DNA from: Candidatus Dormiibacterota bacterium
Lineage (GTDB): Bacteria; Chloroflexota; Dormibacteria; Aeolococcales; Aeolococcaceae
Length of the DNA: 64,000 nucleotides
Direction of reading: 5' to 3'
Assembly (NCBI GenBank): GCA_963709585.1
Contig: CAVPXI010000023.1
Location: 49,045-113,044 of the forward strand
Part shown: piece by piece, positions 16,551 through 16,765 of the stretch
How positions within the stretch are numbered: position 1 is the stretch's first letter
Layout of the letters: each line of letters opens with the position of its first letter
The notes under the pieces: model-generated
What the model was told of the DNA's origin: nothing
The model's database searches: none
Seen by the model: only the letters and a program-made list of their open reading frames with translations
Translations under genes and position numbers: made by a program

Positions 16551-16667
16551 TCCGGTGATCATAGCGGTGGGGAAACACCTGTTCCCATCCCGAACACAGC
16601 AGTTAAGCCCACCAGCGCCGATGGTACTGCCCTGGCAACGGGGTGGGAGAGTAGGTCGTTGCCGGGT
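16551..16667 (+). rRNA. rrf: 5S rRNA
   Basis: CCCATCCCGAACAC, GTTAAGCCCACCAGCGCCGATGGTACT, GAGAGTAGGTCGTTGCCGGG. Confidence 0.97.
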
Positions 16668-16765
16668 ATCTCTCTTTTGTTTTCCGGGCTCTGAGGCGGA
16701 TTTGTATATGAAACAGAGCAGGTAAGTGCTAAGGACATATAGCACGGCGCTAAAAGAGTAGATAA
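16659..16765 (+). repeat. att-like site A (attL type): core overlapping the 5S 3' end plus right arm
   Basis: TTGCCGGGTATCTCT 16659; AAACAGAGCAGGTAAG 16711 (+52); TAGCACGGCGC 16740 (+81); extra AAAAGAGTAGATAA 16752. Confidence 0.85.

Follow-up and report, generated by a model that had tools for sequence, protein, structure and literature searches.

The 5S rRNA gene appears to serve, with its 3' end and the few bases that follow, as the chromosomal attachment site (attB) of a small clade of XerC-sized tyrosine integrases that arose within a tRNA-targeting family, and mobile modules appear to have stacked in tandem at this site; comparison of gene order and sequence among relatives leads us to place the probability of this reading at about 0.87. 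The site was studied in a window, by which we mean the whole 64,000-nt stretch analysed, from contig CAVPXI010000023.1 of a Candidatus Dormiibacterota bacterium from soil. An earlier note on this DNA had singled out the 3' end of 5S as an integration target, and two observations bear this out: the integrases found beside 5S form one clade, and relatives have a single core at sites that do not hold a given insertion. The same note had regarded 5S targeting as uncommon, which agrees with a full-text literature search in which we found no report of a bacterial 5S attachment site.

The 5S gene end and the modules behind it

The 5S gene (rrf) occupies 16551..16667 on the forward strand, matches Rfam RF00001 over its full length (model 1-120, 107.3 bits) and is the final gene of an rRNA operon with the order 16S-tRNAIle-tRNAAla-23S-5S; its copy number is one in the genome assembly to which the window belongs (3.52 Mb in 24 contigs, 88.8% complete). 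Close to its 3' end, the 16S gene of the operon is interrupted by a group I intron of ~775 nt (window 10618-11453; Rfam Intron_gpI 10618-11400), beyond which the final 49 nt of the gene resume at ~11405-11453 when aligned to the intron-less 16S gene of a relative (L088, described below). The 23S gene (12147-16387) is 4241 nt long against a model of 2925 positions and thus holds ~1.3 kb of insertions, which include a group I intron match at 14892-15111.

The core of the putative attL, TTGCCGGGTATCTCT, is 15 nt long and lies at 16659..16673 on the forward strand, where it comprises the final 9 nt of 5S and 6 nt past the gene. Exact copies, all on the same strand, recur at 25629, 29031 and 29541, and a fifth copy at 30777-30790 is one G short (TTGCCGGTATCTCT); when up to three mismatches are allowed the window contains five matches, a number reached by none of 100 shuffles. 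Imperfect similarity extends beyond the core for ~18 nt more, to about 16691. At the left edge, G16658 is common to copies 3 and 4 and absent from copy 2, so that strict identity begins at T16659. Thus, the shared core that had been read as GTTGCCGGG was correctly placed at the 5S end, but its G16658 is missing from copy 2. Strand exchange must be confined to the 15-nt block of identity, somewhere within which the crossover would have taken place; neither core-type inverted binding sites nor an overlap region were located in it by eye. The unit of ~190 nt that surrounds the core does not occur again in the 3.52-Mb genome outside the 5S region. Genomes of the same genus that do not have the 9-kb element behind 5S show 100% identity to the window over the 5S gene and 15-17 nt beyond it, and the gene is therefore intact. 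This, together with the full-length Rfam match, upholds the earlier proposal that insertion leaves rrf unharmed.

On the element side, the stretch from the core to the start of the integrase gene (16674..16773, forward strand) can be viewed as a P' arm and carries three conserved boxes, GAAACAGAGCAGGTAAG at 16710-16726, ATAGCACGGCGC at 16739-16750 and AAAAGAGTAGATAAT at 16752-16766. The three boxes are found in the same order between 5S and the integrase gene in three other loci (L067, L068 and L088), and also 3' of internal cores in the window. On the 5' side of every later core stands a conserved P arm of ~95 nt with related boxes, and most of these cores also have an arm of the P' type on the 3' side. 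Junction 2 (25536..25643, forward strand, nhmmer 105.6 bits) consists of a P arm of ~95 nt, in which the pattern AAACAGAGCAGATAA ... CGCTCG ... GAT ... ATAGCACGGCG is recognizable, and the exact core at 25629-25643, and it forms both the right end (attR) of the first module and the left end of the second. Three further junctions on the forward strand have the same build: junction 3 (28934..29045, 105.8 bits) with an exact core at 29031-29045, junction 4 (29448..29555, 90.6 bits) with an exact core at 29541-29555, and junction 5 (30685..30790, 81.1 bits), in which the P arm is joined to the core lacking one G and a P'-like box follows on the 3' side. Direct-repeat boxes make up the P and P' arms, which are 70-85% similar between modules. 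With P arm, core and P' arm in succession, the internal junctions look like attP sites, as expected for integrative elements in tandem. The possibility that the P arm is a decayed 3' half of 5S, with which it had been aligned by MAFFT, was rejected, as nhmmer matches 5S over the core only; cmscan detected no 5S signal in 25400-30900 at E values up to 10.

It could be argued that these repeats are not att sites and instead belong to a regulatory or terminator family, a hairpin (CCCGG-N7-CCGGG) with a T-rich run that has been copied behind genes. A 5-bp hairpin followed by TATCTCTCTTTTGTTTT can indeed form from the P-arm end and the core of the internal copies, and the core sits where termination of the rRNA operon is expected. 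It should be emphasized, however, that a consensus scan of 16400-17000 found neither promoter nor terminator between 5S and the integrase gene, and that the folds of the five junctions are not convincingly better than those of shuffled sequences (z -2.2 to +0.8). The unit, moreover, is restricted to the region behind 5S in 42 genomes, bounds insertions and co-occurs with a dedicated integrase clade, and we consider a terminator family a highly improbable explanation.

The reading of the repeats as att sites divides the region behind 5S into modules, all on the forward strand. Module 1, the 9.0-kb integrase-bearing element (16674..25628), encodes, according to Pfam, the integrase, a replication-type DUF3631 gene in two ORFs (18441-20019), an HNH protein (20267-20641), a large terminase (20663-22258), a capsid protein (22746-24287) and a prohead protease (24417-25124), and resembles either a phage satellite or what is left of a prophage. 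Module 2 (25644..29030, 3.4 kb) has no recombinase and encodes membrane and secreted proteins without Pfam match. Module 3 (29046..29540) is only 0.5 kb long and holds one YCII-domain gene (PF03795), which in two relatives (G007 and G024) lies 3' of the 5S core and in two others (G012 and G011) 3' of the last core. Module 4 (29556..30776, 1.2 kb) contains a lone ABC-transporter permease gene (29685-30680; PF00528 and PF19300). Any order of arrival of these modules would be tentative.

The remaining variable region, delimited by blastn against relatives, extends over 30791..36770 on the forward strand up to the genus backbone. One of its genes (31018-32217) is located between two cores in another genome (G003) and has no recognizable right-hand junction in the window. 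An ORF in 32381-33430 has at least four degenerate internal repeats of ~140-165 nt (families D5 and D14), each with a motif of the CTGCTGGGCGGTGGG type, and shows a weak Pfam match to a Rax2 beta-propeller-like domain; well downstream, 56234-57175 consists of three to four tandem copies of a 273-nt unit that are 73-100% identical. In 18 loci of the genus, this backbone (window 36770-38254, ending in tRNA-Leu) is separated from 5S by 2.9-20.4 kb, and the distance is greatest in the window.

An integrase clade tied to 5S

The integrase gene of module 1 (16774..17690, forward strand) starts 106 nt 3' of the 5S gene and encodes an XerC-like tyrosine integrase (PF02899 and PF00589) that is 305 aa long in intact homologues. 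The protein has the composition of a tyrosine recombinase, a SAM-like N-terminal domain followed by a catalytic domain with R, K, HxxR, H/W and Y; among 18 homologues R156, K180, R251, H252 and W274 show no variation, and H248 and Y283 almost none. The frame of the window copy is broken at 17316/17317 by a 1-nt deletion. PF02899 and PF00589 match the two halves, of which the N-terminal frame aligns to residues 1-181 of an intact homologue (P0003) and the C-terminal frame to residues 187-305, and the addition of one C after 17316 restores the family consensus GKGRRRRAVPLG. As the 1-nt deletion accounts for the consensus exactly, a 5-bp tandem duplication was rejected as the cause of the break. 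The deletion may be real or an assembly error. The two DUF3631 ORFs likewise overlap in different frames and are collinear with a single ORF of 438 aa in L088, a second frame break within 3 kb that indicates decay of the element or single-base assembly errors. Given both breaks, the window copy of the integrase may be inactive, or the assembly may contain single-base errors.

Homologous integrases adjoin rrf elsewhere, as the earlier note had anticipated. The window integrase has 65-94% identity to about 19 protein clusters from metagenomes, and in three independent contigs an integrase that is 93% (L067), 69% (L068) or 59% (L088) identical to it has a 5S gene upstream on the same strand, with 107-109 nt between the 5S end and the integrase start. 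L088 belongs to a metagenome-assembled genome labelled 'uncultured Chloroflexia', which falls into the family of the window genome and another genus (16S 95.1% identical). Its core, TTGCCGAGTATCTCT, in which the identity is 2 nt longer, occurs at 9885 and 18043, 8158 bp apart, and the two copies bound an element of 8.2 kb with a DUF3631 gene; a hairpin and a T run beyond the second copy resemble the terminator of the operon.

In a maximum-likelihood tree the four 5S-adjacent integrases that were seen in genomic context, on which the link to 5S rests, form one clade (support 99/94; recovered in 100% of 200 bootstrap trees) that is nested among homologues adjoining tRNA genes. The contexts of distant homologues were taken from 30 loci of a 401-genome sample of the phylum, plus others, and show tRNA genes of at least eleven kinds (Gly, Arg, Gln, Lys, Val, Thr, Met, His, Pro, Ala and Ile) at a distance of 150-250 nt from these integrases; one such locus (L186, from the unpublished genome G027) was counted as tRNA-adjacent and left out of the tree. 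Upstream of the integrase in the closest outgroup (L089, 54%) no RNA gene is recognizable, and for two tRNA-type relatives (L090 and L091) no repeat that could mark the far att site was detected in the locus sequences examined. About one-third of the tRNA-adjacent homologues have the tRNA gene in the opposite direction, so that the integrase start faces the tRNA 5' end; these loci (L169, L170, L178, L182, L191, L193-L195 and L197) cluster in the tree, and one integrase family may thus use two site geometries. A scan of viral contigs with the integrase alignment returned no relatives, and the 115 matches of the 15-nt core to such contigs, none of which had a P arm by nhmmer, are chance matches.

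The arrangement common to these loci would be explained by the following mechanism. The element would carry a site of ~190 nt consisting of the P arm, the 15-nt core and the box-bearing P' arm directly upstream of the integrase gene. Recombination within the 15 nt of identity, catalysed presumably by the integrase of the element, would insert it, and the 5S gene would be rebuilt from identical element sequence. The integrase gene would thereby come to lie behind 5S at a distance of 106-109 nt and share the strand of the rRNA operon, and each insertion would regenerate a usable core at which later arrivals could insert, generating a tandem stack behind 5S.

The earlier note had also suggested that a conserved and possibly multicopy target would give the element a broad host range, and here the data point the other way. 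The 5S gene is single-copy in the window genome and in the genome of L088 (G489), and the core, 6 of whose 15 bases lie outside the gene, is conserved within the family only. The exact core was found in 53 of 117 family genomes, representing 8 of 22 genera; the 53 include two unpublished genomes (G455 and G328), on which no conclusion depends. The sister family, whose 5S ends include L047 (from the unpublished G036), has TCGCCGGGTCTCTTTT at the position of the core. In genus g12 the core has a G-to-A variant, and an element in that genus has the same variant at both ends. These patterns point to a specificity that is matched to the lineage and is not broad.

Tandem stacks and modules without an integrase

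In the 42 genomes of the genus all exact core copies are located at the 5S end or up to 11 kb downstream, on the same strand, and every assembled 5S end carries the core; a reversed pattern used as a control gave one match in the 117 family genomes. Among the ~33 genus genomes with an assembled 5S end, 23 have a single core at that end and 10 (G000, G003, G011, G012, G017, G019, G020, G024, G042 and G044) have tandem stacks of two to five cores. Comparison of occupied with simpler loci shows that insertions are bounded exactly by the core. In G007, 5S and the core are followed directly by the YCII flank. In G012 a segment of 2165 bp with SDR and TetR genes, and in G011 a segment of 5071 bp, stands between the 5S core and a P arm with a second core, which leads into the same YCII flank. 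Empty sites thus contain the core, in keeping with what had been anticipated. No relative offers an exact empty site for comparison with the 9-kb element, as in none of them does module 2 follow 5S directly. The order-level table of the 5S-end comparison includes two unpublished genomes (G027 and G036), and no conclusion depends on them. G012 has two 5S ends (G012:C11 and G012:C13) with different downstream content, one of which is identical to the flank in G023, and this genome may have two rRNA operons or its bin may mix strains.

A different explanation for such variability is that the region behind 5S is a hypervariable island exchanged by homologous recombination between conserved flanks, a process for which Wilhelm et al. 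(2007; PMC2217521) argue in the case of SAR11 HVR2, and that the integrase is a passenger. On the left, such an exchange could draw on the long and perfectly conserved homology of the rRNA operon; the P and P' arms, at 70-85% similarity between modules, could support some homologous recombination, and most stacks have no integrase nearby. To the right of the insertions, however, the sequence shared by G012, G020 and G007 is limited to the core of 15-22 nt, which is too short for efficient RecA-dependent exchange, so that long homology exists on one side only. Homologous recombination is a poor explanation for the insertions because only the core and a few bases are shared on the right. It also does not predict a specific integrase clade at a fixed distance of 106-109 nt from 5S in four independent loci, or an element core that follows the G/A variant of its host, and we regard it as unlikely.

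Site-specific insertion into the 5S end leaves the question of how the modules without a recombinase got there. Most stack modules have no integrase, and modules of 0.5-2.2 kb keep both full arms around one or two cargo genes. The 5S-type integrase is present in only the window genome among the 42 genomes of the genus and, in the 117 of the family, additionally in G489. No integrase is found beside 5S in 9 of the 10 stacks; no PF00589 gene was detected near the stacks of G003, G011, G012, G017, G020 and G024, and no close homologue of the window integrase in G042 and G044. As two of 117 genomes have the integrase and 10 genomes have stacks, the enzyme that inserted most modules is not in those genomes. 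In the five-core stack of G019 (L049, G019:C1, about 2594400-2599900) the first module contains a peptidase A4 gene and an unrelated tyrosine recombinase, which is 27% identical over its N-terminal part, is encoded on the opposite strand and adjoins the second core; a second recombinase family may use the same 5S site.

Integrase-less modules could be immobile deletion remnants of complete elements that were inherited vertically, a view that concerns the stacks only and not 5S as the target. Decay is visible in the broken integrase and DUF3631 genes of the window, in the fifth core that is one base short and in partial P arms in G017, G012 and G023. Against this view stands the retention of both complete arms by modules with one or two cargo genes. 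It is also challenged by the 2.1-kb SDR/TetR module, which lacks an integrase and shows 92-96% identity among three species, against 67-77% for their nearby backbone; this module is first in the stack in two of the species and second in the third. Such a distribution fits a recent horizontal spread of the module as an integrase-less unit, and we judge remnants to be a rather unlikely general explanation of the stacks. Since most modules have complete arms but no recombinase, we infer that the integrase-less modules were most likely inserted in trans by an integrase of the 5S clade.

Relation to known integration systems

In genomic islands, prophages and satellites, tyrosine integrases insert into the 3' part of tRNA or tmRNA genes, as reportedly described by Reiter et al. 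(1989) and Williams (2002), two works cited in PMC2217521 and PMC12540744. The elements described here share several features with these islands: the integrase adjoins the att site, the block of identity overlaps the 3' end of a stable-RNA gene that is rebuilt upon insertion, direct repeats are present at both ends (16659 and 25629 in the window, 9885 and 18043 in L088), and the nearest relatives of the window integrase adjoin tRNA genes. In contrast with these islands, the target here is 5S, the core takes in no more than 9 nt of that gene and reaches at least 6 nt past it, and the integrase is XerC-sized (305 aa). The mechanism would be that of the classical tRNA/tmRNA-targeting integrases, from which the tree indicates descent. 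The 5S clade thus appears to represent a clean, phylogenetically resolved switch of target from tRNA to 5S in one integrase family, which informs how integrases gain sites.

Tandem accretion at one att site is known from CIMEs and from ICESt1/ICESt3 of Streptococcus thermophilus, from SCC composite islands with ccr-less pseudo-SCC elements at rlmH, from tandem ssrA islands of Dehalococcoides and from the tycheposons of Prochlorococcus. As in these systems, the modules analysed here are arranged in tandem behind one gene end, have direct att repeats and in many cases carry no recombinase; modules 2-4 of the window, in particular, resemble CIMEs and pseudo-SCC elements in that they are bounded by att sites like those of the integrase-bearing element and have no recombinase. 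The differences are that the anchor is 5S, that a module may measure just 0.5 kb and hold a single gene, each module keeping a full site of ~190 nt, and that a matching integrase was found in one genome of the genus only.

A non-tRNA stable-RNA gene as attB has a parallel in phage phiEf11, whose attachment site lies within the 4.5S RNA gene ffs (Stevens et al. 2025; PMC12540744). In the accessible part of that paper ffs is introduced as a new target among non-coding RNA genes, the known ones being given as tRNA/tmRNA and csRNA genes only. The phage differs from the present elements in its RNA gene, in the phylum of its host and in its core of 27 nt, and module stacks are not described in that part of the paper (PMC12540744). 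SAR11 HVR2 is, like the 5S region studied here, a variable gene region anchored at rRNA genes. It lies upstream of 5S, between 23S and 5S, and has been explained by homologous recombination between rRNA genes (Wilhelm et al. 2007; PMC2217521), whereas the insertions here are found downstream of 5S, have a 15-nt core as their boundary and are associated with an integrase clade. The TIGER/Islander resource has three classes of integration site, tRNA/tmRNA, protein-coding and intergenic (PMC12424338). In such surveys, islands behind 5S would count as intergenic and their target would be missed. The 5S end is thus a place to seek islands and captured genes in poorly known soil phyla.

With integrons the stacks share rows of small, mostly single-gene units that have their own recombination sites and a fixed anchor. 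They differ from integrons in that no integrase stands beside the anchor in nine of ten stacks, in that the sites are ~190 nt long with direct-repeat boxes and without significant folds, whereas those of integrons are imperfect palindromes, and in that the window integrase groups with tRNA-targeting XerC-like enzymes. Interest in the system would be greater if the integrase-less modules prove to be captured in trans, and as such modules clearly move between species, trans-mobilization is directly testable with a small, defined site. It is conceivable, with the odds a little short of even, that the 5S end acts as a gene-capture platform, at which recombinase-less modules of one or two genes, each with its complete site of ~190 nt, pass from species to species, while integrases of transient satellite-like elements insert them in trans and perhaps also excise them. 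Such a platform would combine an integron-like economy with a tRNA-type integrase and an rRNA anchor.
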